A stretch of DNA of 64,000 nt from a virus (taxonomy: Duplodnaviria; Caudoviricetes): IMG/VR virus record IMGVR_UViG_3300031992_000030. One strand, written 5' to 3'. Under the pieces are notes generated by a model. That model did no database searches. It saw only the letters and a program-made list of their open reading frames with translations, and was not told the origin of the DNA. Positions 4,062 to 43,094 of the stretch are shown here, in pieces. Positions within the stretch are counted from its first letter, which is position 1. Every line of letters begins with the position of its first letter. Both the position numbers and the translations under genes were made by a program.

Positions 4062-6002
4062 TTATCCCAAAAATTTGTTGATGAATTCTTCTTCAGTTAG
4101 AACGGGTATTCCTAACTTTTGAGCAGCTAAGTTTTTACTCGAAGTGGAAGTGTTATCATTGTTAATTAAATAATTAGTTTTTGCACTAACTGATGAAACC
4201 ACTTTGCCCCCAGCTGCTTCGATCTCGGTCTGCAAGGCCGCACGATTCTTATAATGTATTAGTTTACCCGTAATACATACACTTACTCCAGCAAGAGAAT
4301 CGTTGGTTGTCTCCTTTATCTCTACTTTTGGTATAGATAAATACTTGTAAACTTCATCGGCTTCTGTGTAATCAAAATTCCATAAAGCCTCAGTTTTACT
4401 TTCTGCAAAACCTTCGTAAATAGAAAAGTCAAATCGAGAATTAATAGCATTTCTAAATTCCTCATAAGTGGGATAATACTTTACGATTTCTTTAGAAACT
4501 CCATTTCCGATTAAAGGAATTCCAAGAGAGCAAATAAATTTCTCAAGTGTTGTTGTGCGGGCTGCCTCAATGGCGTTTAAAATCTTGTCGACAGACGTTG
4601 GTCCAAACCCGGGAAGTTTTATCCACTGAGAACGATATTGATTTAATTCAAAAATCGAACTCAAAGATTTAACCCAATCATTATCTATCAATTTTTCCAA
4701 AGTCGCAACTGACAGGCCTTTAATGTCTAAACCCTTCTTGCCCACAAAATGGTCTAATCTGTTAATTAGTTTAAATGGGCAAGCGGGATTAGTACACACA
4801 AGAGTAACTGTACCACTCTCTGACTTTACTAACTCTGTTTCTCCACCACAATTACATTTCTTAGGTAAAGTTATCAGCTTGTCCCCGTCATAATTGTCGC
4901 ATTTATCTGCATTCTCGATATAAGGAATTATCTGATTTCTTTTGGATACACAAACTCGTTGACCTTGATAAGGGGTCGCACCCAAAGTATCATATAATGT
5001 ACTTATATTGGATAGTGAAGCTCTGTTAATTGAAGTACCATCGATGTCGATAGGTTCAAATACAGCGACTGGAGTTAGAACGCCACGTCTACTGGTATCA
5101 TAGGTGATACCAAGCAAATAAGATTCATAACTTTCATCATAAAACTTATAAGCAATAGCGTTTTTAAAGTGATGCTCTGTGCTACCAAGTGATTTTCCAT
5201 ATTCAATATCATCAAATTTAAATACTATTCCATCAATAGGATAGTAAAAATTCTCTGCTATTGATTTAAGAAATTCAATCTTATCTTCTGTTGACATAAA
5301 ACTGTCTTTGATATGAGGGACAACTCTGAAACCAAGTCTCCAAAGTGACTTTAAGTTTTCAATAAAGCTGTTTTTACCATTGTCTGGCCCCTTAATCATG
5401 TCCCAGGCCACGAAAGATAACCCCCTGGCCGCACACTCTTCGGATTTAAGTAATCTAATAGAACCCGACGCGAAATTGCGAGGGTTCTTATATTCTTCAC
5501 TCCATTTCTCAAAGTTCTTATAAGTGCAGATAATTTCTCCATCTACAATAAGTTCTTCTTTGTAAGAAATAGTTTGAGGGATATTACTGATTACTTTGGC
5601 ATTATGAAGAACATCTTCTCCAATAACACCATTTCCACGAGTTTCAGCACTTACTAATGAACCATTCAAATATCTTAATGAACAAGTTAAACCATCCATT
5701 TTACACATGGCGGTATATTCTTGCCCATGCAAAAACTGGTCAACTTCCTCCACACTTTTGGTTTTATCCAAAGAAAGCATAAGATGATTATGTTCCACCT
5801 TCTGCAGACCATTTTCCCTTGCCTCGTATGAAATACTCTGTGTCGGAGAATCAGGGTAGATAATGCCAGTATCCTCTTCCAGTTTAACCAGTTCAAAATA
5901 CTTATTATCCCACTCTTGGTCTGAAATTGTAGGACATCCTTCATCATACAACTTTGTGTGTGAATTAAGAAAGTCAATCAGTTCTCGAATTCTTTCGTTC
6001 AT
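4062..6002 (-). CDS. ligA: NAD-dependent DNA ligase
   Basis: HLMLSLDK, KMDG adenylation motif, TRGNGVIGEDV, NPRNFASG, IDGIVFK, Zn finger, HhH, C-terminal BRCT. Confidence 0.97.
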   Translation of the reverse strand: MNERIRELIDFLNSHTKLYDEGCPTISDQEWDNKYFELVKLEEDTGIIYPDSPTQSISYEARENGLQKVEHNHLMLSLDKTKSVEEVDQFLHGQEYTAMCKMDGLTCSLRYLNGSLVSAETRGNGVIGEDVLHNAKVISNIPQTISYKEELIVDGEIICTYKNFEKWSEEYKNPRNFASGSIRLLKSEECAARGLSFVAWDMIKGPDNGKNSFIENLKSLWRLGFRVVPHIKDSFMSTEDKIEFLKSIAENFYYPIDGIVFKFDDIEYGKSLGSTEHHFKNAIAYKFYDESYESYLLGITYDTSRRGVLTPVAVFEPIDIDGTSINRASLSNISTLYDTLGATPYQGQRVCVSKRNQIIPYIENADKCDNYDGDKLITLPKKCNCGGETELVKSESGTVTLVCTNPACPFKLINRLDHFVGKKGLDIKGLSVATLEKLIDNDWVKSLSSIFELNQYRSQWIKLPGFGPTSVDKILNAIEAARTTTLEKFICSLGIPLIGNGVSKEIVKYYPTYEEFRNAINSRFDFSIYEGFAESKTEALWNFDYTEADEVYKYLSIPKVEIKETTNDSLAGVSVCITGKLIHYKNRAALQTEIEAAGGKVVSSVSAKTNYLINNDNTSTSSKNLAAQKLGIPVLTEEEFINKFLG

Positions 6003-18650: not shown

Positions 18651-20300
18651 TCAATTAGAAACCATTGGAGGGATAAAAGGGTTTTGAGTATAAGCGAGAT
18701 TAAAAATAGGTCTAATCCCAAAAGAGCTCAATCCTCCAGTACCAGATTGTGCGGTGACTTCACCTGTGGCATTAACCCCCAAAAATAAGGTATTAAAGGC
18801 ATTTAATTCAGATATTACATAAGGGTCTTGACTCAGCGGAGTTGCATGACATCTGTCTCTTAACCAATATCCTTTTCCACAACAACGTAAATCAGGACGT
18901 AATGTAAAAAGCGGTAATTGAGAACATTCTCCATTTGGTTCAAAATTACCATCACTAACGGTATTTGATGTTTGAATAGTAAAATTATCTTCAACTCCAA
19001 TAGTTCTATTTCCTGTAATTTGCTGTTCTGTTGGTATTTCTACATCTGAAGTACAATATCGATAACCAAATTGTCCTAAATGTATCCATTTCCCTGCACT
19101 AAAAATACGACTGGTTTGCATAATATGACTATTTAAACCAAATGCTCTTTCAATAATTCTTTTTGCTTGGTTAAGTCCTCCATAATTATTACCATATTTA
19201 TAAGTAACTTTTATAGTTTGTGCATTTTTAAATGACGTACTAGCTAATTGATAACCATTAAGTCCTAACTGCCAATATAGAATTTGCTGTCCATCTACTA
19301 ATATTTCTACTATAGAAGGAACACGATTACCTCCAGTGTCAGCATTATAGGTAGGAAGTAAAGCTTGATGTGATAAAACTACATAACTTGAGTCAAATTC
19401 TCCGTAAGATGTTTGTACGTCAGAACTTGAAAATGTTTCTTCAACTGTTTGAATATCAGAATCATTCATATAAGCATACATGAGAATAATTTCATTAAAA
19501 GTTGGGGTAATAGGACTAGTTCGTGGAAAACCATAAACTAATTTATTTCCATAATTTATGTGCCAAGTATTAGAAGAATAACTTATTACATTATTATCCA
19601 CTATTAAAAATCCATTAACTGGATAATGGTCTAAATCAATAGCAAAAATTTTCGTTCCATTACCTACATCGAATAAATATCCATCACTATTTGAATGAGT
19701 TTCTGAAACAGATTTATATCCTCGCATATCGCTCCAAGTATATCCACTCATAGCTCCAATACCAGTGGAAGTAAAGATTTGAGTTGGGCCAGGAACTATA
19801 ACTTCATCAGGGATGACAGTAATATGAGGTGCAGCATTTCCTTCATAACCAACCCCTCTAAAATAATCAAAGGCGGCTATACGCCAAGTGATCCATTGGT
19901 CGGTTTCTTGGTCATAAGTTTTCCAGAAATCTCCAATGAACATATTGTGGAACTTGTCTTGAGCGATAGTATTCCAGTCTATGTTAGCAGGGTCACCCAA
20001 GTCCGCGCCTCTAAAAAAGGAATTGTGAGCACCTGGGCCGTCGGGGACTGAATTCCAAAATCCTCCATCTGAATTCAATTCATTAATAGCACCAATTATA
20101 TTTTTTGCATTAGTTTGAAGTGAATCAAAATTTAATACAGAACCTATCCAATTACCCAAGCGCGATAAGGTTAATTTTTTAGATTTATATGGATGTTCAG
20201 AACCTTCTGGTTGAGGCGAAGATATTTCTATTACTTCATTTCCATTTAGATTATCAGTTCCTAAAGGTAATTCAGAAATTTTAACATTCTCTTTAGACAT
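18651..20300 (-). CDS. Receptor-binding/fibre protein with putative C-type-lectin-like (DUF6273-like) domain
   Basis: KISEL N-terminus, HNSFFRG, FIGDFW, WRIAAFDYF, QLPLF, YWLRD, GIRPIF. Confidence 0.65.
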   Translation of the reverse strand: MSKENVKISELPLGTDNLNGNEVIEISSPQPEGSEHPYKSKKLTLSRLGNWIGSVLNFDSLQTNAKNIIGAINELNSDGGFWNSVPDGPGAHNSFFRGADLGDPANIDWNTIAQDKFHNMFIGDFWKTYDQETDQWITWRIAAFDYFRGVGYEGNAAPHITVIPDEVIVPGPTQIFTSTGIGAMSGYTWSDMRGYKSVSETHSNSDGYLFDVGNGTKIFAIDLDHYPVNGFLIVDNNVISYSSNTWHINYGNKLVYGFPRTSPITPTFNEIILMYAYMNDSDIQTVEETFSSSDVQTSYGEFDSSYVVLSHQALLPTYNADTGGNRVPSIVEILVDGQQILYWQLGLNGYQLASTSFKNAQTIKVTYKYGNNYGGLNQAKRIIERAFGLNSHIMQTSRIFSAGKWIHLGQFGYRYCTSDVEIPTEQQITGNRTIGVEDNFTIQTSNTVSDGNFEPNGECSQLPLFTLRPDLRCCGKGYWLRDRCHATPLSQDPYVISELNAFNTLFLGVNATGEVTAQSGTGGLSSFGIRPIFNLAYTQNPFIPPMVSN

Positions 20301-32297: not shown

Positions 32298-32370
32298 TGG
32301 AGTGCCCCGTGGGAGTTGAACCCACCCCAACGGTTTTGCAGACCGCTTGCCCTCCGCGAACATGAGGCAC
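32298..32370 (-). tRNA. tRNA-Cys(GCA)
   Basis: GTGCCTC/GGGGCAC acceptor, CTGCAAA loop, TTCAACT T-loop, U73, CCA; short atypical D-arm. Confidence 0.85.
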
Positions 32371-32371
32371 A

Positions 32372-32581
32372 TTACTCTAACTTATCATCATAATCATCAA
32401 CATAAAATCTATCATCATCGTAATAAGTGCTTAACATATATCTTAAATCAAAAGCTAAATCTTGGATATGAGATTCCTGACTTTCGTTTTCTATTTTAGT
32501 CAAACCACTCCAACATCTCTCTATAAGAGCATCACGATTATCAGCACCTAATTTATTGTTTAATTGATATTTAGTTTTCAT
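32372..32581 (-). CDS. Hypothetical protein
   Basis: RBS, operonic. Confidence 0.55.
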   Translation of the reverse strand: MKTKYQLNNKLGADNRDALIERCWSGLTKIENESQESHIQDLAFDLRYMLSTYYDDDRFYVDDYDDKLE

Positions 32582-33111
32582 TATAAATGTCCTCCAGTAA
32601 CCGTATCAAACCAAAAGTTCCAGTTAATTAATTCGCATATAATTAGATTGTGATACTCACCGTACTTATCTCTCATATATCCTGTCAACTGGAACAGATT
32701 TTTATTATACCCACCGGCCGCACTTTCAACTATCTTCTGGTAGCCTTTTCCAGCCTTGTTATCAGCAACATATCTAAACTCAACTCTACGAGGTTTCATA
32801 GATAAAATTTCCTCAATAACTTTTGCTATTCCAAGAGCCATAGTCATCTTATACTTTGGATTTTGATTAAGACAAATCAAACCAAAATTACAAACTTGAT
32901 GTGCATAAAAATCAACTCTATAACTGATATATCCTACTACTACATTGTACTCTTGATTTACAATGGCATACTGATAACATCCATTTTCTTCTTTAATAGT
33001 CCATTCATAATTCTCAATACATCCATTATAAAAGAGCATTGCTTCAGAATATTGATTCATCTTGAACAAAGTTTCAAGTTCGTTTTTACGAGCCATAGCT
33101 GGGACTAACAT
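32581..33111 (-). CDS. GNAT-like acetyltransferase
   Basis: QYAIV...VGYISY...RRVEF...N.A..GY...RDKYGEYHN pattern of RimJ/RimL-like proteins. Confidence 0.55.
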   Translation of the reverse strand: MLVPAMARKNELETLFKMNQYSEAMLFYNGCIENYEWTIKEENGCYQYAIVNQEYNVVVGYISYRVDFYAHQVCNFGLICLNQNPKYKMTMALGIAKVIEEILSMKPRRVEFRYVADNKAGKGYQKIVESAAGGYNKNLFQLTGYMRDKYGEYHNLIICELINWNFWFDTVTGGHL

Positions 33112-33292
33112 AAATATCTATTCTCTCCTCGACTATCATTATCTTACTAACATAATAATCTATATATTCATAAGGAACATCTTTTACAAAACCTTTGTAC
33201 ACCAATTCACCTAAAAGATGAATTCCAATTTTATCTCCAAGTTTTGGAATTAAATTGAGTAAATCACCAAGTTGAATTGCTTTATACTCCAT
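33086..33292 (-). CDS. Hypothetical protein (similar to 54830 and 59719)
   Basis: L.DLL...YKG...DVPY pattern. Confidence 0.45.
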   Translation of the reverse strand: MEYKAIQLGDLLNLIPKLGDKIGIHLLGELVYKGFVKDVPYEYIDYYVSKIMIVEERIDIYVSPSYGS

Positions 33293-33530
33293 GACCGAAT
33301 ACCTCATTAAGTACATCATATACTTCTTCTGGAGTATTGCAGATATTATATGCTTTTTGGATAGTGTATAACTGTTTCAGCCAGTCTGCCATATGTCTAT
33401 CGTGGTCAGCATATCTTAATTCTTGACCCGCAGAACTATCAAAACCATCTCTTGCGAATCTATGGGCTTGTTCTACGTGCTTTGTAGCAGAATTGTAAAA
33501 ATTTTCTATTTCTTTTTCAATATCATTCAT
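33282..33530 (-). CDS. Hypothetical protein
   Basis: RBS, operonic. Confidence 0.55.
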   Translation of the reverse strand: MNDIEKEIENFYNSATKHVEQAHRFARDGFDSSAGQELRYADHDRHMADWLKQLYTIQKAYNICNTPEEVYDVLNEVFGHGV

Positions 33531-33798
33531 TTTTTATTTCCTCCATTTTAGTAAAATAAACATTTACTTGTTCTTCACTTATATATTCAAAATTAGCACG
33601 AAAACCACAATCTTCAGCAATATTGTTAAGTTCTTTTACAAGTTTTTTAAAGCCTTCGATAGGAGCGAAGTGTGGACAAGTTAGTTCATCAGGGTCGGTT
33701 GAAAATTTAAATGTATTACAATGCTTTTGAGAGTAATGAGCGCAATCTTCACAAAATTTAATTCCAAGTTCTTTTGTGGTTCCTACAATTTTCTTCAT
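33523..33798 (-). CDS. Hypothetical Cys-containing protein
   Basis: Operonic overlap. Confidence 0.55.
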   Translation of the reverse strand: MKKIVGTTKELGIKFCEDCAHYSQKHCNTFKFSTDPDELTCPHFAPIEGFKKLVKELNNIAEDCGFRANFEYISEEQVNVYFTKMEEIKNE

Positions 33799-34301
33799 AT
33801 AAATTGAGCCCTTTCTTTAAATTTCTTTTTGGCAAATTCTTCTGCTTCTGTATCACCGACTTTTACTATTAAACCCCTATCGAGTCCACTTTTAATCCAA
33901 TAATAAAACTTACCCGCATAGGCTTTTTCATCTATAATAACCTTACATTCATATTCTCCATCTGTTTCTGGTAAATGAGTGATATAGCATCCATCAAAAC
34001 CATTTTCTTTTTCTAATTCGCCGTGAAGATAAATATATGGAGTTGCTTTGAAGGTATAATCTTTAACCCCTATAACTTTTACATCTTCTTCCACAGTAAC
34101 CAAGTGTACAGACCAAGAGCCGAAATCACAGTAAGTTTCTCCTTTATCTCCTAACCAACCACGAGTAAAACGAGGATTAGGAAAACCCCATTTTGCCATT
34201 TCTTCTAAACAGGCTTGATGATATTCTTCATAGGAGAAATACTCACCTATTTTAGTACGGTCTTTGTTTGGGTACTCAAGATATAATATATATTTTTTCA
34301 T
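33795..34301 (-). CDS. Hypothetical protein
   Basis: Own promoter and RBS. Confidence 0.6.
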   Translation of the reverse strand: MKKYILYLEYPNKDRTKIGEYFSYEEYHQACLEEMAKWGFPNPRFTRGWLGDKGETYCDFGSWSVHLVTVEEDVKVIGVKDYTFKATPYIYLHGELEKENGFDGCYITHLPETDGEYECKVIIDEKAYAGKFYYWIKSGLDRGLIVKVGDTEAEEFAKKKFKERAQFI

Positions 34302-34420
34302 AAAGCATATTTCTCCTTTATTTTATATATATATTATATCATAATTTTTTATTTTTGTCAATAAAGTTTTTATTGTTTGCGGCGGGGCGTTCCTGAGATC
34401 CTCATGACCAAGGACCGCAC

Positions 34421-35212
34421 TTACTCATAAAGATAAAAAATCTTTTCATCTTCAAGTCTGATGCAAGCCAAGTTTCCGTTACGGCCATCCTCATCGTCTG
34501 GATAATTCTTTCCGTACACCAGGCCGCAATCTATATTTATAAAACGACGATTTCTTTCGTTATATAAAGTACAAACTTTACCTTTATTATAAAACATTTC
34601 GGTCGGTATAATGGTTGGTGTATGACCAAAAATTATTGTTGCATTTGGTTTTCCGCCATATTTAATTCCCTCTTCTCTTGCCCAAATATAAAAATCTTCT
34701 ATATCTTCAGCAAGATAATCAAAAGGTTTTTCTTCTGTAAAAGCAGTAAAGTCTTCTGGTGAGATAAAACCGCCATGAATAACAATAAATTCTTTACCAT
34801 TTATTTCTAAATCAAAATAATAGGGCATATCAGTAATCATCTTGTTCCAACGCTGGAAATCAGTAGCACTTAAATTATGTTCATTTACAAGTTTTTCTAC
34901 TGTACCATAATAATCATATACGCCACTATTCCATACATCTTCAAATTGTATCACTTCACTTTTATTATGAGCATTATTAAAAATCTTACTACAATATCTT
35001 GCAAAATCTATATCATGATTGCCCTTGATAAACTTAACTCCTTTTGGTTTACTATGAGCATATTCAAGCATTTCGTATGACTGAGGTCCACGATCCACAA
35101 TATCACCCGCAATAATAAGTTCATCTACTTCTGGGTTAAAATTAATTTTATTTAACATTTGTTGAAATTCATTATAACAGCCGTGAATATCAGCCATAAC
35201 ATAAGTAGACAT
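34421..35212 (-). CDS. Calcineurin-like metallophosphoesterase (Ser/Thr phosphatase / ApaH-like)
   Basis: DIHG, GDIVDRGP, GNHD, HGG, FGHTP, IDCG motifs. Confidence 0.92.
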   Translation of the reverse strand: MSTYVMADIHGCYNEFQQMLNKINFNPEVDELIIAGDIVDRGPQSYEMLEYAHSKPKGVKFIKGNHDIDFARYCSKIFNNAHNKSEVIQFEDVWNSGVYDYYGTVEKLVNEHNLSATDFQRWNKMITDMPYYFDLEINGKEFIVIHGGFISPEDFTAFTEEKPFDYLAEDIEDFYIWAREEGIKYGGKPNATIIFGHTPTIIPTEMFYNKGKVCTLYNERNRRFINIDCGLVYGKNYPDDEDGRNGNLACIRLEDEKIFYLYE

Positions 35213-35350
35213 AATTATTTCCTCACTTTATTTTTTTCTATATATATTGTACTATAATTTTTAATCATTGTCAATAAAGAATTTTGAATCTTGTCCATGA
35301 TTAATCAAATCATATTTTTTAGTTAGACATACACATAGTTCCTTAAATAC

Positions 35351-35376
35351 AAAAATGGGGAGGCACAACCCTCCCC
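35351..35376 (-). terminator. Terminator of the tRNA operon
   Basis: GGGGAGG/CCTCCCC hairpin plus U-run. Confidence 0.7.
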
Positions 35377-35379
35377 CGC

Positions 35380-35531
35380 AGCAGTATATCCACTGGAGTT
35401 CCCTCTGTTCAATTTATATACCGCAGATATGAGGTGGGTGGACCCGTACCAAAGGGTAACACGACCTTTTTAGGAGTTGGTCCTCCAGTGTCCCTATTTT
35501 ATTCTCTTCGTGATACAGGCCCAATGCGGTT
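35380..35531 (-). ncRNA. Unidentified structured RNA with pseudoknot
   Basis: ACCGCA/TGCGGT, 12-bp GGGCCTGTATCA/TGGTACGGGTCC, loop CACTGGAG pairing downstream CTCCAGTG. Confidence 0.5.
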
Positions 35532-35535
35532 ACAA

Positions 35536-35687
35536 TCTTGAAGATGAGGATTTGCACCTCATATAGCAATACTATTTCAACTATGGATTCGTGTTGTCGT
35601 TTCACCAACATCAGTTTAGTTTCTTGTCTTTTCAACAATCAATAATTGCCTTACCTTTAAGCGTCTACCTATTCCGCCACCTCAAGA
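35536..35687 (-). ncRNA. tRNA-like RNA with about 90 nt in place of the anticodon arm
   Basis: 8-bp acceptor-like stem, Leu-type D-arm GGCGGAATAGGTAGACGC, T-like arm ATGAGG-TGCAAAT-CCTCAT, no CCA. Confidence 0.65.
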
Positions 35688-35691
35688 TATT

Positions 35692-35767
35692 TGGGTGATA
35701 TAATCAGATTTGAACTGATATCTTCAAGAGCCACGGTCTTGCGTTTTACCATTAAACTATATACCAC
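35692..35767 (-). tRNA. tRNA-His(GTG), C33 variant
   Basis: G-1:C73, CAAGA-CCGTGGC-TCTTG, CCA. Confidence 0.85.
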
Positions 35768-35772
35768 ATATT

Positions 35773-35864
35773 TGGCGATGGTACTCAGATTCGAACTGAG
35801 ACGTCGCTTACACGACTACTCATGGTTTAGCAAACCACTGCCTTACCATTAGGCTTATACCATC
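35773..35864 (-). tRNA. tRNA-Ser(GCT)
   Basis: TTGCTAA loop, long variable arm, G73, CCA. Confidence 0.9.
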
Positions 35865-35868
35865 ATTA

Positions 35869-35934
35869 ATGACAGCGTGTGCACCTTGTACTTTGGCATT
35901 GAAACTGTTAATTCGGATTGCTGCACATCTGGCC
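35869..35934 (-). ncRNA. Possible divergent member of the CAGCAA-stem RNA family
   Basis: TGTGCA-GCAAT...TGCACA...GTCAT; outer stem imperfect. Confidence 0.35.
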
Positions 35935-35984
35935 TTCCATCCTATAAAACCTATGTTTTTCTGCATACTTTAATTCTCACTTCT

Positions 35985-36060
35985 TGGCAGCCGCGAAAGG
36001 AATCGAACCTTTATCTTCTGGTTCAGAGCCAGATATACTAAGCCTTTATACGACACGGCC
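35985..36060 (-). tRNA. tRNA-Gln(CTG)
   Basis: TCTGG-CTCTGAA-CCAGA, TTCGATT T-loop, CCA. Confidence 0.88.
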
Positions 36061-36084
36061 ATTTTAGAAAGGGTAAAGCCCTTT

Positions 36085-36576
36085 CTACTTACTATACTTA
36101 TTAGCAATACCACTTGCGGTATAACTATAAGGCTTAATCAAACAAGTGTAACCGCAAGCAGTTACCCACTTTGTGATTTCATTTATTAACATAGAAGTCT
36201 TTCCATCTTGTCCAATATCACAATGAATTTGGAAAGTTAAGTCGAGATTATTTATATCAATATCATATTCATATAAAGCCAACTCTAACTTATCAACCAA
36301 ACCATTGGCAATCTCAAGACTTCTTGATGTTTCGGTACTGATTTTTTGCTTCAAATTAGAAATCTTATGCATATACTCTATGTTATAGAAATATATACCA
36401 CCATTTCCTTGTCTATGTACCGCTATTACCTCAACCATTTTTGTTTGTCTATGGTTTTGGCTATCAGTACCAACAGTGAACTCATAAGTTGCATTAGGTT
36501 GGTCAGCGATGTACTTAGCTATCTTGTTAATAATTTGATCTTCGGTCATTTCTTGACCAGATGCTGACCTAAACAC
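36085..36576 (-). CDS. RNase H-like YkuK (DUF458) family protein
   Basis: VGTDSQ, E..RSL, IHCDIG..G.T, IKP.SY.AS..AN.YSK. Confidence 0.8.
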   Translation of the reverse strand: MFRSASGQEMTEDQIINKIAKYIADQPNATYEFTVGTDSQNHRQTKMVEVIAVHRQGNGGIYFYNIEYMHKISNLKQKISTETSRSLEIANGLVDKLELALYEYDIDINNLDLTFQIHCDIGQDGKTSMLINEITKWVTACGYTCLIKPYSYTASGIANKYSK

Positions 36577-36621
36577 GACAACTTATCTCCTTTCATTTTT
36601 GTTTTGTATGTCCTTGCGGAC

Positions 36622-36698
36622 TGGCACACCGGGAGGGATTTGAACCCAGTCATCGTGCGGTTTTGGAGACCGCTGTTTTACCGTTAAACTACCGGTGC
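36622..36698 (-). tRNA. tRNA-Trp(CCA)
   Basis: GCGGT-CTCCAAA-ACCGC, CCA; T-stem imperfect. Confidence 0.82.
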
Positions 36699-36704
36699 AT
36701 ATTT

Positions 36705-36780
36705 TGGTTGGAAGTGTGAGAGTCGAACTCACCGCAACCGCTTTATAAGAACGGCCCCATAACCGCTTGGGTAACTTCCA
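36705..36780 (-). tRNA. tRNA-Ile(TAT)
   Basis: CCGTT-CTTATAA-AGCGG, A73, CCA. Confidence 0.85.
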
Positions 36781-36789
36781 GTAAATAAA

Positions 36790-36900
36790 TGGTGCACGAG
36801 GTAGGACTCGAACCTACACACTATCCATAGTATCTAACATATACCGCGAATCTAATATTAGACTTGTGGATTAGCCGTCTTCCTATTGCGGCACTCGTCC
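36790..36900 (-). ncRNA. tRNA-Leu-like RNA with elongated anticodon arm and no canonical anticodon loop
   Basis: Leu-type D-arm, long variable arm, TTCGAGT T-loop, ACCA end; anticodon region is an extended hairpin capped by TCTAATATTAGA. Confidence 0.7.
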
Positions 36901-36907
36901 ATGAATT

Positions 36908-36992
36908 TGGTGGGCAGGGTGAGTGTCGATCTCACTATTCCCGAAGGAGTCGGATTTACGGTCCGATGCAGTTGCCGATTTGCTACCTACCC
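36908..36992 (-). tRNA. tRNA-Tyr(GTA), C33 variant
   Basis: TCGGA-CCGTAAA-TCCGA, long variable arm, T-loop ATCGACA, CCA. Confidence 0.85.
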
Positions 36993-36996
36993 ATGT

Positions 36997-37070
36997 TGGA
37001 GCCGTATACGAGGTTTGAACTCGTACTATCTGCTTGGAGGGCAGAGGTGCTACCATTACACCAATACGAC
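36997..37070 (-). tRNA. tRNA-Gly(TCC), C33 variant
   Basis: TCTGC-CCTCCAA-GCAGA, U73, CCA. Confidence 0.85.
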
Positions 37071-37076
37071 ATTTGA

Positions 37077-37150
37077 TGGTGGCTTTACCGGGAGTCGAAC
37101 CCGAATAGACAACCTTATGAGAGTTGTTTGGGAACCAGACCCATAAAGCC
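37077..37150 (-). tRNA. tRNA-Met/Ile2(CAT)
   Basis: CAACT-CTCATAA-GGTTG, CCA; compact D-arm. Confidence 0.82.
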
Positions 37151-37241
37151 ATATCTCTTATTTTCTATATATATTATAACATAAAAAATTAGAGTTGTCA
37201 AGAAAAATTTTTGGGGCCAACACTAATTGTGCGGCCCCCGT

Positions 37242-37316
37242 TGGAGCAAGTAGTGGGAGTTGGACCCACATCTCAACCTTGGCAAGGTCGAATAATAACC
37301 GTTATACTATACCTGC
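37242..37316 (-). tRNA. tRNA-Gly(GCC)
   Basis: TTGCCAA loop, U73, CCA; T-loop TCCAACT. Confidence 0.87.
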
Positions 37317-37323
37317 ATTTAAT

Positions 37324-37401
37324 TGGTGCTCGCACAAGGATTCGAACCTTGGACCCCTTGCTTGTAAGGCAAATGCTCTCGACCAGCTGAGCTATGCGAG
37401 C
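37324..37401 (-). tRNA. tRNA-Val(TAC)
   Basis: Canonical cloverleaf, CTTACAA loop, CCA. Confidence 0.92.
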
Positions 37402-37407
37402 ATATAA

Positions 37408-37509
37408 ATGACGCTTTAAAGAGCCTCCCATAGGCGATTACAAAATTGAATGGCTTGTAATATAAGAATCGAACTTATTGTTATTATTTTGTATTGCTGT
37501 AAGCGTCAT
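37408..37509 (-). ncRNA. CAGCAA-stem RNA (Y-RNA-like candidate) carrying a T-arm
   Basis: ATGACGCTT-ACAGCAAT...ATAAG-TTCGATT-CTTAT...AAGCGTCAT. Confidence 0.65.
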
Positions 37510-37525
37510 ATAAAATTTAATTAAA

Positions 37526-37615
37526 TGACCCGACCTACGGAATCGAACCGATATATTTGATTTGCAGTCAAATTGTTTACCATAAACGAGCGTTTTGATT
37601 TGCTGATAAGGGTCA
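37526..37615 (-). ncRNA. CAGCAA-stem RNA carrying D, anticodon (GCA) and T arms
   Basis: TGACCC-TTATCAGCAAA...GTTTATGGTAAAC-A-TTTGA-CTGCAAA-TCAAA...CGG-TTCGATT-CCG...GGGTCA. Confidence 0.7.
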
Positions 37616-37629
37616 CAAAAAAATAAATT

Positions 37630-37765
37630 GGGGGAGAGGGAAGATAGGCGTTCCCCAACGCAATAGTTCCCTCAGGTGGGCTCTTTGGCACCCGGTCACC
37701 CAAATCCGGGGCGGTACATTGACGGCTGTCCGCAAGCCTCTGGTGGGGATTTTGAAGTGTCCCTA
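37630..37765 (-). ncRNA. Unidentified GC-rich structured RNA
   Basis: GAGGGAA/TTCCCTC, GCGTT/AACGC and CCGG/CCGG hairpins in an AT-rich operon; no credible ORF. Confidence 0.4.
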
Positions 37766-37881
37766 AACTTTAGAATGAGAAAAGTTAAGTTCAAATTTGA
37801 TATTGCGATACTGCCCCGCACCTCTTGAATAAGTATTCTTCTCTATTAAACTATCACAAATTTGATACTTAAAGTCCTCGT

Positions 37882-37961
37882 TGGTGGAGAATACGGGCAC
37901 CGACCCCGTCTGAATTTCCTGCTTGCAAGGCAGGCGACCACTCCGAGCAGTCCCATTCCCC
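37882..37961 (-). tRNA. tRNA-Ala(TGC)
   Basis: G3:U70, CCTGC-CTTGCAA-GCAGG, CCA; atypical T-loop GTCGGTG. Confidence 0.85.
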
Positions 37962-37968
37962 ATAATGA

Positions 37969-38027
37969 ATGACGCACATAAAAGAGAATTCAGGTCTTTT
38001 TTGTTTTTGCTTTGCTGTTGGCGTCAT
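37969..38027 (-). ncRNA. CAGCAA-stem RNA (minimal member)
   Basis: ATGACGC-CAACAGCAAA...AAAAGACCTGA...GCGTCAT. Confidence 0.65.
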
Positions 38028-38034
38028 ATAAAAG

Positions 38035-38110
38035 TGGTGTCTAGAGTAGGGATCGAACCTACCACGCAGGGATTTTCAGTCCCTCGCTCTTCCAACTGAG
38101 CTATCCAGAC
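38035..38110 (-). tRNA. tRNA-Phe(GAA)
   Basis: Canonical cloverleaf, CCA. Confidence 0.92.
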
Positions 38111-38115
38111 ATAAT

Positions 38116-38191
38116 TGGTGGGTGTGAGAGGACTCGAACCTCCACTCCCTTGATTAAGAGTCAAGTGCATTAGCCATTTTGCTACACACCC
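38116..38191 (-). tRNA. tRNA-Lys(CTT)
   Basis: CTTGA-CTCTTAA-TCAAG, CCA. Confidence 0.92.
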
Positions 38192-38194
38192 ATT

Positions 38195-38271
38195 TGGTGC
38201 TTGACAAGGGAATCGAACCCTCAAAAAACTGATTTTGAGTCAGTCATGTCTGCCAGTTGCATCAATCAAGC
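38195..38271 (-). tRNA. tRNA-Leu(CAA), short variable loop
   Basis: ACTGA-CTCAAAA-TCAGT, Leu-type D-arm, A73, CCA. Confidence 0.88.
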
Positions 38272-38275
38272 ATAT

Positions 38276-38351
38276 TGGTACCCCGACAGCGACTCGAACG
38301 CTGAACCTACACTTTAGAAGAGTGTTGCACTTCCAGTTGTGCTACCGGGGC
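38276..38351 (-). tRNA. tRNA-Arg(TCT)
   Basis: ACACT-CTTCTAA-AGTGT, CCA. Confidence 0.9.
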
Positions 38352-38356
38352 ATAAT

Positions 38357-38433
38357 TGGTGTCTCCGGAGGGAGTTGAACCCTCAAAACCTGCGTCCTTA
38401 GCGCAGTACCTATGCCAATTCGGTTACGAAGAC
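38357..38433 (-). tRNA. tRNA-Leu(AAG), short variable loop
   Basis: CTGCG-CTAAGGA-CGCAG, Leu-type D-arm, CCA. Confidence 0.88.
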
Positions 38434-38544
38434 ATATAATGTCATTTGCTTTCTCACTCGCAAGTGGTTTAATGCTAACTGCCAATGACTTGACGGGGAG
38501 TAGGTTTTCATCTCCCGTGAACTCCTCGAAGTCCACCCGCTATT

Positions 38545-38620
38545 TGGTGACGCGTGCCGGACTCGAACCGACATCTCCAGCTTGAGAGGCTAGCCACCTA
38601 TTCCATTAGTAGAACGCGCC
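38545..38620 (-). tRNA. tRNA-Glu(CTC)
   Basis: CTAGC-CTCTCAA-GCTGG, CCA. Confidence 0.88.
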
Positions 38621-38624
38621 ATAT

Positions 38625-38700
38625 TGGTGCGGGTGACAGGGATCGAACCTGCGGCTTTCTGCTCCCAAAGCAGACACTCTTCCACCTGAGCTACACCCAC
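38625..38700 (-). tRNA. tRNA-Pro(TGG)
   Basis: TCTGC-TTTGGGA-GCAGA, CCA. Confidence 0.9.
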
Positions 38701-38742
38701 AAATAATTCCCGTCGTTTATTACGCTCTGACGGGTTGAGCCG

Positions 38743-38819
38743 TGGCTCCCGGAGTGGGACTTGAACCCACAAACCACCTGATTAACAGTCAGTTGCGCTA
38801 CCGATTGCGCCACCCGGGA
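38743..38819 (-). tRNA. tRNA-Asn(GTT)
   Basis: CTGTTAA loop, G73, CCA. Confidence 0.92.
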
Positions 38820-38857
38820 ATATTCGGAGCCGTTTAACGTCATTGCTCAGGACACGC

Positions 38858-38932
38858 TGGTTGCAGAGGTGGGAGTCGAACCCACTACCTCAAGGTTATG
38901 AGCCTTGTGAACAACCGTTGCTCTTCTCTGCT
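38858..38932 (-). tRNA. tRNA-Met(CAT), initiator-like
   Basis: CTCATAA loop, 1-72 mismatch (A/A), ACCA. Confidence 0.85.
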
Positions 38933-39168
38933 ATATTTCTTATCTTTTTTACATATATATTATAACAAATTTTTTCAAGTTTGTCAATAATGATTTTTTT
39001 AATAGGCTGTTTATCAAATCCATTTAACGTTTCGCATCGATGGGGGCCCAAATGTAGCTCAAATACAAGTCCGCCTAATCCATCAACCAAAAGCACCTTA
39101 ATTTATTATAATAAAATAGGTTATTGTTCCATTATCAACTACTTACAGGGTCCTCTTACCCAAGCCTG

Positions 39169-39247
39169 TGGTTGGGGTGGTGAGATTCGAACTCACGAAA
39201 ATACATGGGTCAAAGCCATGCGCCATTAACCACTAGGCGACACCCCA
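39169..39247 (-). tRNA. tRNA-Gln(TTG)
   Basis: CATGG-CTTTGAC-CCATG, CCA. Confidence 0.9.
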
Positions 39248-39261
39248 ATATTTTTAACAAT

Positions 39262-39339
39262 TGGTGGGTTTGAGGAGGCTCGAACTCCCGGCCCTCTGAT
39301 TAAAAGTCAGATGCTCTAACCAATCTGAGCTACAAACCC
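39262..39339 (-). tRNA. tRNA-Lys(TTT)
   Basis: TCTGA-CTTTTAA-TCAGA, CCA. Confidence 0.92.
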
Positions 39340-39436
39340 ATAAGATATGTTTACAAACGAAGAAGAAAAGTTTCAAAAAGAACTATCGTTTGTTGAGTTA
39401 CTTTTTATGAAAAATAAGTGAGGTACGAGATATTGT

Positions 39437-39521
39437 TGGTGCGAGTAACGGGAGTTGAACCCGTATGAATTTCTTCGATGAATTTTAAGTCCATTGTGTA
39501 TGCCAATTCCACCATACTCGC
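39437..39521 (-). tRNA. tRNA-Leu(TAA)
   Basis: CTTAAAA loop, variable arm, CCA. Confidence 0.92.
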
Positions 39522-39545
39522 ATATTGGAGAGGGCACGAGCCCTC

Positions 39546-39950
39546 TCAAACTTCATTTATTATTACTGTACCTGAGCCAAAGCAAATTATGTGTCTTTGT
39601 CCATCCTCATCATCAAAAAGTATCTGATTTGAATTGTATTCAACATCAAACTTACCTTGATATTCTTCAATTATATCACCATTAGCATCATATACAATAA
39701 CTTGTCTTTCAATGCCACCATTGAAATTGCTATCCTGTGTTTTAAGTGCTCTTGCACCATCTTCAGTATTACCATAATACCAAAAACCACCGGCCCATAT
39801 GGCAACAGTTATCGCCAAGGTAACAACAATAGAAATTATTGTTCCAATTATACTAGCGCCCATATCATAGGCTCCATATGCAATAAGACCACCGATAATC
39901 ACAATTACAACCGTAAATACGAGACAGGTAATAATTGCTCCAATTGTCAT
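39546..39950 (-). CDS. Two-TM membrane protein
   Basis: Two hydrophobic helices followed by a soluble beta domain. Confidence 0.7.
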   Translation of the reverse strand: MTIGAIITCLVFTVVIVIIGGLIAYGAYDMGASIIGTIISIVVTLAITVAIWAGGFWYYGNTEDGARALKTQDSNFNGGIERQVIVYDANGDIIEEYQGKFDVEYNSNQILFDDEDGQRHIICFGSGTVIINEV

Positions 39951-40189
39951 AGCAATCCATTCTCCTCTTCTTCCGCAACTTCTTTAGAGACAGCAGAACT
40001 CATCATATTAAAGAAAGTGATTGGGTCTACGTTATGGTCATCGCACCAAGTATGCACAACTGCACAAATGGCTGCGGCCAATCCGGTTTCAGAATTATAC
40101 TTACTAATGGCCCGAGTCAATTCGTCAAAATTCTCAAAATCAGGAATAAGTATGCTTTTAAGAAAGGTGTCAAAATCCATTTCATTCAT
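39947..40189 (-). CDS. Hypothetical protein
   Basis: Own sigmaA promoter; overlaps the next start. Confidence 0.55.
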   Translation of the reverse strand: MNEMDFDTFLKSILIPDFENFDELTRAISKYNSETGLAAAICAVVHTWCDDHNVDPITFFNMMSSAVSKEVAEEEENGLL

Positions 40190-40273
40190 AGGTATATACT
40201 CTCTTTCATTTTTCTTACATATATATTATATCATTTTTTTCTTTGTTTGTCAAGAAAGATTTTTCTGTGGAGA

Positions 40274-41770
40274 TTATTTCTCCACAAAAATCTGTGCATA
40301 TCTGTCACTTAAGATAGTAGCAAGCATAGCCTCATAAGGTGTCTTATCAAGGTTAGCAAGTAAAGTCTTAAATGTAGTTGCAGAATGACCTGACAAAAGT
40401 TGGACGCCCTTTCTGTTAGCATCTGCGTGGAATGTATTAGACTGACTATTTACATTCCAGAAGATAACGTTAGGGATTTCATAGCCATATACAGCAAACT
40501 TTCTTTTCCAATCATCATAGAATGTACCGGAAGTGCGAACCGCTCCGTTAATCTGCATATCAGAGATAATTACGAGTGCCTTAGGAAGTTCCTTAGCATT
40601 TACTCTATTTCTTACCGCAGTATCGAGAATTACCTCAAAAGCAGCGTCGAGGTTTGTAGACATATTCCAGTCTGCGCTAACCATATTACGAATTCTATCA
40701 CACACAGTTGCTCCTGCAATAGAAACCAACTTAGGTGAAGAAGAGAATGTCATAAACTTGTTATGGAAAGGGCCGGCCGCACGCTCTGCAAAATACATAG
40801 CCAAGCCTACTGAAGAAGCCAAAGGCAACTTATTGCAACAAGTCATTGAACCAGATACATCTGCCATAACAAGTACATTAGTACCATCTTCAACATAGTT
40901 AGGGAGAGCCTTCCACTGAGCCTCAAGTACTGAATCAGCAGGTATGTCGTTATAACCCCATATACTGCGGTTAAGATTCAAATACTTCTGAACAATATCA
41001 TAAGGGAAAAGGGTATTAGCCTTAATCTCCTTTTTACCAGAAGTCACGTCATTAAGATACTCAACAAATCTTTCGCCGTCCTTGTGGGAGAACAAGACAC
41101 GATACTTTGTCATAGCATTAGAAGGAACCTTATCATATGCAATAGTGCTAAACTCATTTGCAGAGATAGCGATCTCAACAATATTAAGGTACTTACGAAG
41201 TGCCTTAAGAGGTATCTTAAATGAACGAACATTCTTATATCCCAACTTCTGGGAAGTCAAAATGCCTAACTTACGAGTTGTAGGTGAAGATGCATCAGGT
41301 GTCTTGATCCACTTTGCAAGAAGTGAAACAGGCTTACCCGCGAGCATTGCCGCTCTATCCTTTTCAAACTGTGCCTTCATAACTTTCCACATATCATCTT
41401 CACACTTGGTTCCAATAAGGAAATACAAGTCATCAAAACGACCATAAAAGCCGATAAGGGCAATATTAGGTCTTACAATCTCAGGGTATCTATCTGCTGC
41501 ATATCTGAGCAAAGTACGGAAAGTATCTCTCTCTCCAAGTCCCTCACGAATATCTCTTCCATAGAAGAGAATCTTTGCGGCGAGCTCCTTGTCTTCTGCG
41601 CAGGCCTTGTCGAAAAGCTCGTATCTACGAGCATCGGAAGTATTACGAAGTGCTCCAATAGTTGCAAAAAGGTCTACAAGACCTTCTCCTGAAGATGATA
41701 AGCACTTTCTGCCATTAGCAGTATAAGTCCAAGAAGTTTCTCTGCCGAGTAAATCTGCAAAATTTGCCAT
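40274..41770 (-). CDS. DUF2828-type protein: TROVE/Ro60-like helical domain plus C-terminal vWA domain
   Basis: T.NG...SS...DLF, RDIR.GLGER, GRFDDL, SLLAKW, VPSNAM, TLFPYDIV, QW; MIDAS DVSGS, TFS, TNL, ISDMQ, FWNV. Confidence 0.85.
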   Translation of the reverse strand: MANFADLLGRETSWTYTANGRKCLSSSGEGLVDLFATIGALRNTSDARRYELFDKACAEDKELAAKILFYGRDIREGLGERDTFRTLLRYAADRYPEIVRPNIALIGFYGRFDDLYFLIGTKCEDDMWKVMKAQFEKDRAAMLAGKPVSLLAKWIKTPDASSPTTRKLGILTSQKLGYKNVRSFKIPLKALRKYLNIVEIAISANEFSTIAYDKVPSNAMTKYRVLFSHKDGERFVEYLNDVTSGKKEIKANTLFPYDIVQKYLNLNRSIWGYNDIPADSVLEAQWKALPNYVEDGTNVLVMADVSGSMTCCNKLPLASSVGLAMYFAERAAGPFHNKFMTFSSSPKLVSIAGATVCDRIRNMVSADWNMSTNLDAAFEVILDTAVRNRVNAKELPKALVIISDMQINGAVRTSGTFYDDWKRKFAVYGYEIPNVIFWNVNSQSNTFHADANRKGVQLLSGHSATTFKTLLANLDKTPYEAMLATILSDRYAQIFVEK

Positions 41771-41797
41771 TGTTTTTTCTCCTTTTCACTTTTCTGT

Positions 41798-41890
41798 TGG
41801 CGCCGCCTCTGGGACTCGAACCCAGACACCGTTTGACCAGCTACTACATGTTTTCAAGACACGTTCCTTACCAATTAGGATTAAAGCGGC
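41798..41890 (-). tRNA. tRNA-Ser(TGA)
   Basis: CTTGAAA loop, long variable arm, G73, CCA; lies between a promoter and the DUF2828-type gene. Confidence 0.9.
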
Positions 41891-41950
41891 ATATTCTTAA
41901 CTTTTGTATATATATTATATCAAAATTTTTAATCTTTGTCAATTAGAATT

Positions 41951-42109
41951 TTAATCAACGAGAGCATTTTTCTCCCTTATCTCTTTCTTGGCTTCATCAA
42001 GCCATTCACAATATTGAGTGAAAGAACACTCTGAATAAAAACAATTTGGTGAGTGTCTATGAGGACACAAACAACAATGTCTTATATAAACTATATCTTG
42101 AGCTTCCAT
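41951..42109 (-). CDS. Small Cys/His-rich protein (52 aa, below the ORF-track cutoff)
   Basis: MEAQDIVYIRHCCLCPHRHSPNC... with AAGGAG RBS. Confidence 0.5.
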   Translation of the reverse strand: MEAQDIVYIRHCCLCPHRHSPNCFYSECSFTQYCEWLDEAKKEIREKNALVD

Positions 42110-42138
42110 AGACACTCTCCTTTTTGTTTAGTTCTAAA

Positions 42139-42214
42139 TGGTACCTCCGACAGGACTCGAACCTGCAACTGACCGGTTCGTAGCCGGGTAGTCTTCCAAT
42201 TGGCTTACGGAGGC
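42139..42214 (-). tRNA. tRNA-Arg(ACG)
   Basis: CCGG-CTACGAA-CCGG, CCA. Confidence 0.88.
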
Positions 42215-42220
42215 ATATTA

Positions 42221-42344
42221 TGATGGAAACTGTTGGACTCGAACCAACACTACTGCGTCCCAAACTGCATAGAAAAATAGGTTGCTGTCTTAATCACAAA
42301 ATATGATTGTGTCATTAAGCGTGCTACCCTTACACCAAGTTCCC
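42221..42344 (-). ncRNA. Interrupted tRNA-Pro(TGG)-like RNA containing the ACAGCAA motif
   Basis: GGGAACT/AGTTTCC acceptor, D-arm, insert of about 47 nt with TGTGATTAAGACAGCAA, TTTGGGA loop, GTTGG-TTCGAGT-CCAAC, ends ATCA rather than ACCA. Confidence 0.7.
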
Positions 42345-42345
42345 A

Positions 42346-42423
42346 TGGTGCGTACACCCGGACTTGAACCGGGGACCTCTCGCTTATCAGACGAAAACTC
42401 TATACCAACTGAGCTATGTACGC
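42346..42423 (-). tRNA. tRNA-Ile(GAT)
   Basis: CTGATAA loop, CCA. Confidence 0.92.
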
Positions 42424-42470
42424 ATAAAATGCTGGTTTGGTTTAACCTCCTGAAACCAGCAAATGGGAGG

Positions 42471-42546
42471 TGGAGCTTCCGGTGGGGCACGATCCCACGA
42501 CCTAGTGATTACTAATCACTCGCTCTGCCAACTGAGCTACGGAAGC
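42471..42546 (-). tRNA. tRNA-Thr(AGT)
   Basis: AGTGA-TTAGTAA-TCACT, CCA; T-loop ATCGTGC. Confidence 0.87.
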
Positions 42547-42552
42547 ATTAGA

Positions 42553-42629
42553 TGGGGCCAGCGAAGGGACTTGAACCCTTACTTTCTTGATTACAAGTCA
42601 AGCACATTAGCCAATTATGTTACGCTGGC
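42553..42629 (-). tRNA. tRNA-Thr(TGT)
   Basis: CTTGA-CTTGTAA-TCAAG, CCA. Confidence 0.9.
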
Positions 42630-42634
42630 ATTTG

Positions 42635-42717
42635 ATGACCCCAAGAGCGGCTTCTTCAAAACCGCTTAAAAAACAATGGCGAAGAAAAAATCTAAATTGT
42701 TTTGCGGTTGAGGTCAT
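42635..42717 (-). ncRNA. CAGCAA-stem RNA (ACCGCAA variant)
   Basis: ATGACCTCA-ACCGCAAAA...GCGGTTT/AAGCCGC hairpin...TGGGGTCAT. Confidence 0.6.
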
Positions 42718-42725
42718 AAAAAAAT

Positions 42726-42883
42726 ATGATTGGTAGGGACTACTTAATCAGGTCTTTTGGCGAGTCTACCCCAGTAAGCCATTTCTGGACAAAAGTTTCG
42801 TAGGAACGATTTTAGCACTTTTGTCAACTTGCATTTCCCTATAAATCATCTGTAATAATAGGATTTGCTGTACAACCAATCAC
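42726..42883 (-). ncRNA. CAGCAA-stem RNA (long member)
   Basis: GTGATTGGT-TGTACAGCAAAT...internal hairpins (CCTAT/ATAGG, GACAAAAGT/ACTTTTGTC)...AAAAGACCTGA...ACCAATCAT. Confidence 0.65.
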
Positions 42884-42887
42884 TAAA

Positions 42888-42962
42888 TGGCGGTGATACG
42901 GGGAGTTGAACCCCGATCTACCGGCTGACAACCGGTTATAATGTCCGCTATACGATACCACC
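42888..42962 (-). tRNA. tRNA-Asp(GTC)
   Basis: ACCGG-TTGTCAG-CCGGT, G73, CCA. Confidence 0.9.
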
Positions 42963-43016
42963 ATATAAAATACTCCTTTTTTCCAATTTTGGCTGGAGGG
43001 TAAGGAGCCAACCAGA

Positions 43017-43094
43017 TGGTGACGCGTGCGGGATTTGAACCCAGCGAATACTGCCTTGAAAGGGCAGCGAGTTTGACCACTTCTCCAACGCGCC
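43017..43094 (-). tRNA. tRNA-Glu(TTC)
   Basis: CTGCC-CTTTCAA-GGCAG, CCA. Confidence 0.88.

Follow-up and report, generated by a model that had tools for sequence, protein, structure and literature searches.

Ro60 and the Y RNAs are conserved from bacteria to humans, and the role of the tRNA-like modules is still open. YrlA is a partner RNA of Ro60 with a tRNA-like domain, and its Ro-binding stem contains a GNCGAA(N)G motif (Chen et al. 2014, PMC4201824). In the Thermus phage phiLo, the Ro60 protein binds the phage-encoded Y-like RNAs Yrl1 and Yrl2 and recruits the host PNPase (PMC12135203). The dictyostelid Class I RNAs, products of eukaryotic nuclear genes with lengths of 42-65 nt, have a stem at the RNA ends and bind an RRM protein (PMC7919456). 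They share a conserved unpaired 11-nt motif with near-invariant T3, C6, C9, A10 and A11 (Kjellin et al. 2021, PMC7919456).

The window analysed here, a 64,000-nt stretch of DNA, comes from a phage with genes for gyrase A and B, an NAD-dependent ligase, a PhoH-PIN protein and a sigma-70-type factor. The nearest protein relatives are found in human faecal samples and in MAGs labelled Lachnospiraceae, Roseburia and Acetatifactor. A tRNA island of 31 genes called by ARAGORN (32298-43094, minus strand) encodes the 3′ CCA in every gene, and a gene of the Pfam families DUF2828 and DUF7788 (40274-41770, minus strand) is located within it. The element under study is a complete tRNA-shaped RNA of 121 nt, from G1 to the discriminator base A73, on the same strand (42224-42344). 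Its first base is 1 nt past the CCA of tRNA-Ile(gat), and its discriminator base is separated by 9 nt from the downstream tRNA-Arg(acg); the DUF2828 gene lies 454 nt downstream of the element. Two sigma-70 promoters match the consensus TTGACA-17-TATAAT at 12 of 12 positions on the minus strand, one upstream of the tRNA unit with the element (43309-43281) and the next at 41942-41914. Thus, the promoter positions make the element part of a polycistronic unit. The intact Pro(TGG) gene that the earlier note had placed at 38625 is called by ARAGORN at 38625-38700 in the same island. A megablast search with the region of the element against 50,697 phage records gave no match. A small Cys-rich ORF of ~51 aa (41955-42109, minus strand) lies between tRNA-Arg(acg) and the promoter at 41942, and a 53-aa gene is called at the corresponding site upstream of the DUF2828 gene in three related contigs (L175, L177 and L178).

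The 498-aa DUF2828 protein is the presumed protein partner of the element. Its AlphaFold model, built from 31 homologues, has a pLDDT of 87.9 and a pTM of 0.88. A fold search with the model showed that the top 12 PDB matches are all Ro60/TROVE proteins, aligned over the full length with a probability of 1.0 and TM scores of 0.46-0.63. The matches are the phage phiLo Ro60 (9kop, 9l5y), Xenopus Ro (1yvr, 2i91, 1yvp), Rsr (2nvo) and human Ro60, and isolated vWA domains rank after them. The protein thus models as a Ro60-like ring. A sequence search against the PDB chains gave no match, and Pfam detected DUF2828 and DUF7788 only, not TROVE; the Ro60 relationship is therefore invisible to sequence methods and a fold search was needed. 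A full-text literature search for "DUF2828" returned unrelated papers only.

The arms of the element were assigned by direct reading, with the tRNA model and the alignment of relatives. From the 5′ end, the acceptor strand GGGAACU (42338-42344), which pairs with 42225-42231, is followed by UG, the D arm GUGU-AAGGGUA-GCAC (42321-42335), a single G and C27 U28 (42318-42319). These two bases are the outer part of a split anticodon-stem 5′ strand and pair with A42 and G43. The strand is interrupted by an insert of 49 nt (42269-42317), close to the ~47 nt that had been proposed to lie between the D arm and the anticodon arm. The insert consists of a 5′ spacer, a capped 6-bp handle hairpin AAUCAU-AUUUU-GUGAUU (42292-42308), three nucleotides (AAG), the motif ACAGCAA (42282-42288) and a pyrimidine-rich 3′ spacer. 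The inner anticodon-stem bases GCA, a Pro-like loop GUUUGGGA and the 3′ strand CGCAG follow (42253-42268), and UAGU leads to the T arm GUUGG-UUCGAGU-CCAAC (42232-42248). The acceptor 3′ strand AGUUUCC (42225-42231) and the discriminator A (42224) complete the scaffold. In the place of CCA the element reads UCA (42221-42223), as the earlier note had seen, followed by the spacer UAAUAU before tRNA-Arg (together 42215-42223), whereas all 31 tRNAs of the island have an encoded CCA; CCA could be added to the element after transcription. It is this 3′ stretch that supplies the partner strand of the second fold considered below.

With relaxed filters, the Rfam tRNA model (RF00005) scores the element at 40.3 bits against a gathering threshold of 29 (E 2e-6 over 3 kb) and places the insert in the loop and variable regions of the model. 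The scaffold of acceptor, D and T arms is thereby borne out, and the earlier description, a tRNA-Pro-like scaffold with the family handle, is correct wherever it could be checked. The element was missed by ARAGORN and by an Rfam run at the default gathering threshold. Its anticodon stem is not the contiguous 5 bp with a 7-nt loop of a tRNA, the 5′ strand being split by the 49 nt. In one register, CU and GCA face CGCAG with four pairs, an A.C mismatch and the 8-nt loop GUUUGGGA; an alternative register gives the anticodon GGG. Automatic parsing of the split stem assigned inconsistent registers to the element and its orthologues, with UGG or GGG as the anticodon. The free-energy z-score of -1.19 is unremarkable, so the support for the fold comes from the comparison with relatives rather than from thermodynamics. 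The unconstrained minimum-energy fold gives the hairpin the register CUUAAU..ACACAA / UUGUG..AUUAAG; it is not kept in relatives and was rejected in favour of AUCAU/GUGAU. A basal helix between the A-rich 5′ and U-rich 3′ spacers of the insert showed no excess over shuffled sequences (4.08 vs. 4.10).

The element resembles YrlA and the phiLo Yrl RNAs in its architecture. A small RNA is encoded beside the gene of a ring-shaped Ro60-fold protein, the ring being a model on the protein side here; a putative protein-docking stem is combined with a tRNA-like module of T, D and acceptor arms; and the RNAs occur in phages, several of them per protein. The T, D and acceptor arms of the element and the Ro60-fold gene downstream of it correspond to the tRNA-like domain next to a Ro60 orthologue that characterizes YrlA. 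However, the protein of the window belongs to DUF2828/DUF7788 and not to TROVE, and the putative docking stem is RUGA/UCAU with ACAGCAA, with neither GNCGAA nor CGAA seen on reading the 121 nt by eye. In contrast to YrlA, the tRNA of the element is not permuted, ends in an open acceptor stem, carries a capped handle and keeps an anticodon-like loop. The YrlA model (RF02553) did not match the element at E values up to 10, and the sole match of this model, at 18.1 bits, covers two Thr tRNAs. A resemblance to the dictyostelid Class I RNAs was noted in the short covarying stem and the unpaired motif just 3′ of the 5′ strand of the stem. By description, UAAGACAGCAA of the window keeps four of their five near-invariant positions (C6, C9, A10 and A11). 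However, their stem is terminal whereas that of the element is capped, and they have no reported connection with DUF2828 or tRNA (PMC7919456).

The insert is the handle of a family of stand-alone CAGCAA RNAs in rotated order, namely AAUCAU, a 5-nt loop, GUGAUU, AAG and ACAGCAA. The stand-alone elements lie in the spacers of the tRNA islands and have the form 5′-RUGA(N)n ... CAGCAA ... (N′)nUCAU-3′, in which the inner pairs covary. Five of them are present in the window on the minus strand (37409-37508, 37526-37615, 37970-38026, 42636-42716 and 42727-42882, with C(A/C)GCAA as the motif), some of which enclose a T-arm-like GGUUCGAUUCC. At least seven are present in a 394-kb relative (L001) with a DUF2828 protein 65-67% identical. 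CAGCAA follows RUGA by ~5 nt in most stand-alone copies of the two phages. By itself the heptamer ACAGCAA shows no enrichment in the window (12 found vs. 8.3 expected); the signal is the motif together with its stem context. No Rfam family matched the stand-alone elements within the stretches scanned. The handle-bearing tRNA has its parent family in the five stand-alone elements of the window. Both have the invariant RUGA/UCAU pairs, covarying inner pairs, the spacing to (A)CAGCAA and a DUF2828 gene in the neighbourhood on the same strand. They differ in that the handle stem of the tRNA-shaped RNA is closed by a loop, not terminal, and opens into a whole tRNA. In the Bacillus phage PBC2 (KT070867.1), an unannotated 566-nt gap before the DUF2828 gene (L264 2929-3494) contains three stand-alone ACAGCAA elements, and a 'tRNA-Pseudo' is annotated nearby. 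Their stems are of the type AGAC.../...GUCU and not RUGA/UCAU, so the stem end is clade-specific and ACAGCAA is shared.

Orthologues of the element were found at the same site, after tRNA-Ile(gat), in four contigs (L175-L178). They are 86% identical to it, and their DUF2828 proteins are 87% identical to that of the window. Canonical tRNAs of the window's phage and that of L175 are 58-100% identical, and a value of 86% is unremarkable by itself. The L175 copy differs at 17 positions, yet the acceptor, T and D stems, UCAU/UGA and ACAGCAA are all free of changes; arithmetic from these counts gives P ~0.001 for zero change across those 47 nt at 14% divergence. The changes within the handle preserve pairing (A-U to G.U and U.G to U-A), and the handle of L175 reads AUCAU-GUUU-AUGAU, in which the U.G pair of the element is U-A. 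The anticodon region of L175, GCA-CUUGGGG-A-GCAG, has an A.A mismatch and a 7-nt loop in which UGG is the anticodon; one further pair is broken in L177 and in L178. Judged from these comparisons, the anticodon region is less constrained than the stems and motifs.

Two pairings of the GUGA strand can be drawn in the element, the local AAUCAU/GUGAUU, which had been pointed out before as TTGTGAT with ATCATA, and a pairing of UUGUGAU with AUCAUAA at the 3′ end. The four orthologues read ACCAAUAA at the 3′ end (...AGUUUCC-A-CCA-AUAAAU); they lack AUCAUAA and cannot form the second pairing. The CCA of the orthologues also indicates that the UCA of the element is a private C74-to-U change. Across the class of related RNAs described below, the GUGA strand is no more complementary to the 3′ trailer than in shuffled controls (4.71 vs. 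4.56), and the 7-bp trailer pairing was found in the element alone. Enforced folding gave -27.4 kcal/mol for the acceptor stem with the capped handle and -22.2 kcal/mol for the 3′ pairing, ~5 kcal/mol worse. By these comparisons the local capped hairpin is the conserved fold and the second fold, proposed as an alternative, is an accident of one substitution, which settles the question of the two folds for this element. The description of the element as a permuted family member holds for the capped local hairpin, which is conserved; the tRNA itself is not permuted.

The design of a tRNA with a capped handle is common. A total of 63 distinct copies were parsed, all with the core of the insert. 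Three are in L001, where the Rfam tRNA model detected them and their inserts measure 54-63 nt; scanning viral contigs with patterns added copies in at least eight more virus records and a second site in the contig of L001. An exact 16-mer of the insert used as a probe of the viral contigs gave 13 matches, all in unrelated coding sequence, and among the ~80 loci listed for a looser gapped pattern two were real and the rest mostly chance. Across the 63 copies UCAU-N4-GUGA is invariant, with the closing pair U.G in 61 and U-A in two. The next handle pairs, toward the tRNA body, covary (GC 33 and AU 30; then AU 37, UA 10, GC 10, GU 3 and CG 2). The handle stems have 6-8 bp followed by 1-3 free nucleotides, and ACAGCAA, present in 60 of the 63 copies, always lies 5 nt after GUGA because the sum of stem length and linker is constant. 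The handle loops are short, mostly GUUU or GUUC. In an alignment of 15 copies, 91% of the stem cells are paired compared with 67% in shuffles, a value that none of 500 shuffles reached. All seven acceptor pairs have changed on both sides with 98% of the cells paired, and the T stem is 100% paired. The insertion point ranges from 26/27 to 31/32 and is most often 29/30, that of the element being after C27-U28. The split anticodon strand covaries with its 3′ partner (GUA-CC with GGUAC vs. AUG-CC with GGCAU, the hyphen marking the split). At L150 6048-6149 (plus strand) the D arm is missing from a shorter variant that otherwise retains the acceptor stem, the T arm and the capped handle.

The insert is thus present and non-random in relatives, as a comparison of orthologous loci was expected to reveal for a real feature. 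The suggestion that this copy shows how tRNA genes get recruited into the family did not survive the comparison, the design being old and common. The body of the element is only 60% identical to the Pro(tgg) of the same phage, and its closest relatives besides the orthologues are other handle-bearing Pro-like bodies (71-73% identity). By sequence, the element is a member of an established lineage and not a tRNA caught during recruitment. Three features set it apart from the norm of this large class: its handle loop has 5 nt, its anticodon stem is imperfect and closes an 8-nt loop, and CCA is replaced by UCA. It is thus a slightly degenerate member and could be drifting. The anticodon loops of the class have 7 nt with U33 in 58 of the 63 copies (AUUACAA 20, AUGCUAA 9, AUGGUAA 7, and loops of Pro, Asp, His and Asn types). 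Retention of 7-nt loops in most copies indicates that the anticodon loop is under some selection, which simple docking does not explain.

The handle-bearing tRNAs are closely linked to the DUF2828 gene. Among 80 DUF2828 loci fetched from viral contigs, 68 contain at least one capped-handle tRNA. All 46 distinct copies in these loci are on the strand of the gene, typically starting ~0.2-1.3 kb upstream of it (in loci where the gene starts at 6001). Conversely, of nine virus records picked out solely by the RNA pattern, six encode DUF2828, one has a remnant of it and two are fragments (estimated to be 22% and 46% complete), against a background of 708 DUF2828-encoding records among 50,697 phage records. 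In the record with the remnant (G005, complete, 332 kb), DUF2828 is reduced to 25 C-terminal residues adjoining a TnpB/IS605 OrfB gene and an HNH endonuclease gene (L174 243-1367 and 1701-2222), whereas the upstream CAGCAA RNAs and two handle-bearing tRNAs are intact. Searches of G005 for TROVE (PF05731) and DUF7788 found nothing. The arrangement points to a recent loss, in which an IS605-type insertion destroyed the gene.

Taken together, the element probably (a probability of roughly 0.6) serves the Ro60-like DUF2828 protein as a Y-RNA-like partner whose tRNA shape is not permuted. The grounds are the fold with its covariation, the linkage with DUF2828 and the Ro60-like model of the protein; binding and expression are predictions from these and from the analogy with YrlA. 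Three observations count against this reading: the selection on the anticodon arm, the survival of the RNAs in G005 despite the destroyed gene, and the departures of the element from the class norm. The 43309-43281 promoter would drive transcription of the element as part of the tRNA operon. Since the acceptor stem and T arm are kept, its ends would be cut as in a tRNA, probably by RNase P at G1 and by 3′ trimming or RNase Z, followed by CCA addition. The 49-nt arm leaves the body between C27-U28 and the remaining anticodon stem, with ACAGCAA single-stranded and the U/C-rich spacer leading on to the Pro-like anticodon loop. The handle is equivalent to the stand-alone stem (5′-RUGA ... UCAU-3′) with its termini joined by a loop. 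By analogy with Y RNAs, whose conserved stem docks Ro60, the handle may dock the Ro60-like protein. The tRNA body may then be the displayed module, a tRNA mimic toward tRNA-binding enzymes as in YrlA. The arm should block normal ribosomal use, which suggests a non-decoding RNA. Candidate downstream roles are those of a tether, a decoy for tRNA-cutting defence enzymes and a part in RNA repair.

The class is widespread, probably of the Ro60/Y-RNA kind, and was not found described in Rfam or in the literature searched. DUF2828 proteins form a second, very common phage branch of Ro60-fold proteins, whose presumed partner RNAs are whole tRNAs with a putative docking arm at a near-fixed site of the anticodon stem. 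As a simple system defined by sequence, they make it possible to ask how a Ro60-type ring handles a tRNA shape. The "tRNA pseudogenes" and unannotated gaps of many phage tRNA arrays are likely to be functional RNA genes.

There is an outside chance that the handle-bearing tRNAs are chargeable, and that the Ro60-like protein holds them by the arm as a guarded reserve or as bait, or that the arm is removed on demand. The canonical loops, of Val, Ser, Thr, Pro, Asp and His types, may in the first case be offered to host anticodon nucleases or shielded from them, and with removal on demand one gene may give both a tRNA and a Y-like RNA. If true, either version would tie Ro60-type particles to the phage-host conflict over tRNA.

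Unlikely, too, is a working five-armed tRNA-Pro with a tolerated or regulatory arm, charged and decoding CCN codons. The element does share with tRNA-Pro (RF00005) the acceptor, D and T arms, A73 and U33-NGG-G37, with G35, G36 and G37 kept on a complete scaffold; it also lies in an array of tRNA genes, spaced from the adjoining genes as a tRNA would be. Once the insert is deleted, ARAGORN calls Pro(ggg) or Pro(tgg), and the 7-nt loops with U33 in most of the class point the same way. However, the ribosome grips the anticodon stem at 28/29, where the arm of the element leaves. The element further differs from tRNA-Pro in its 49-nt arm, the imperfect stem and 8-nt loop, UCA and the lack of an ARAGORN call, and the stem is degraded further in L177 and L178. 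A32, a base seldom seen in genuine tRNAs, occurs in the common loops of the class, and a normal Pro(tgg) is present in the island.

Quite unlikely is a new type of tRNA intron, excised with ligation of the halves into a normal tRNA and perhaps release of a free handle RNA. Archaeal-type tRNA introns are defined by a bulge-helix-bulge, with two 3-nt bulges around a 4-bp helix, and a splicing endonuclease. Excision would fit the ARAGORN results, in which a tRNA was called in none of 62 copies with the insert present, in 59 after its deletion and in 58 in intron mode, and it would fit the clustering of the insertion points. However, no self-splicing fold fits the 49 nt, RtcB was not found in five related phage records, the invariant sequence of the insert is common to RNAs outside tRNAs, and in the window the restored stem of the element is still imperfect.

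A decaying tRNA pseudogene that lacks a function and was entered by chance by a repeated or selfish handle cassette would account for UCA in the place of CCA, the degenerate anticodon stem and the atypical handle loop. It is very unlikely given the unchanged acceptor, T and D stems and both motifs relative to L175 despite 14% divergence, the recurrence of the design with covariation in 63 copies, and a body that is no recent copy of any tRNA in the window.

The capping loop occupies the very position of the 5′ and 3′ termini of the stand-alone RNAs, and an enzyme that frees these RNAs might nick it to leave a two-piece tRNA held by the handle and acceptor stems. This is highly improbable, as the enzyme is only hypothetical and the short loops, mostly of two sequences, look like structural caps.

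Barely credible is an ~80-nt RNA that starts at UUGUGAU, pairs it with AUCAUAA and carries the 3′ half of tRNA-Pro as cargo: the 7-bp pairing in the copy of the window and the UCAU ends of the stand-alone members favour it, but the orthologues, the trailers of the class and the folding energies all contradict it, and under it the acceptor 5′ strand and the D arm would serve no purpose despite their perfect conservation.

Other unusual RNA genes were observed in the window and its relatives. A further spacer tRNA-like gene of the window (36793-36900, minus strand) has a T arm GUAGG-UUCGAGU-CCUAC, a body of ~108 nt without a CAGCAA handle, six of seven acceptor pairs and an encoded CCA, and scores only 22.6 bits with the Rfam tRNA model. 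A GOLLD-like RNA (RF02032) lies inside the tRNA island of L001 (7722-8158, plus strand), with 90.9 bits and an E value of 8e-23, below the gathering threshold of 150. The same 394-kb phage has a suppressor-type tRNA with the anticodon UUA (19073-19144, plus strand). In gut phages of ~80 kb, ARAGORN reports a tRNA with the 4-base anticodon ACCA (L201 3107-3180 and L195 2795-2868, plus strand).
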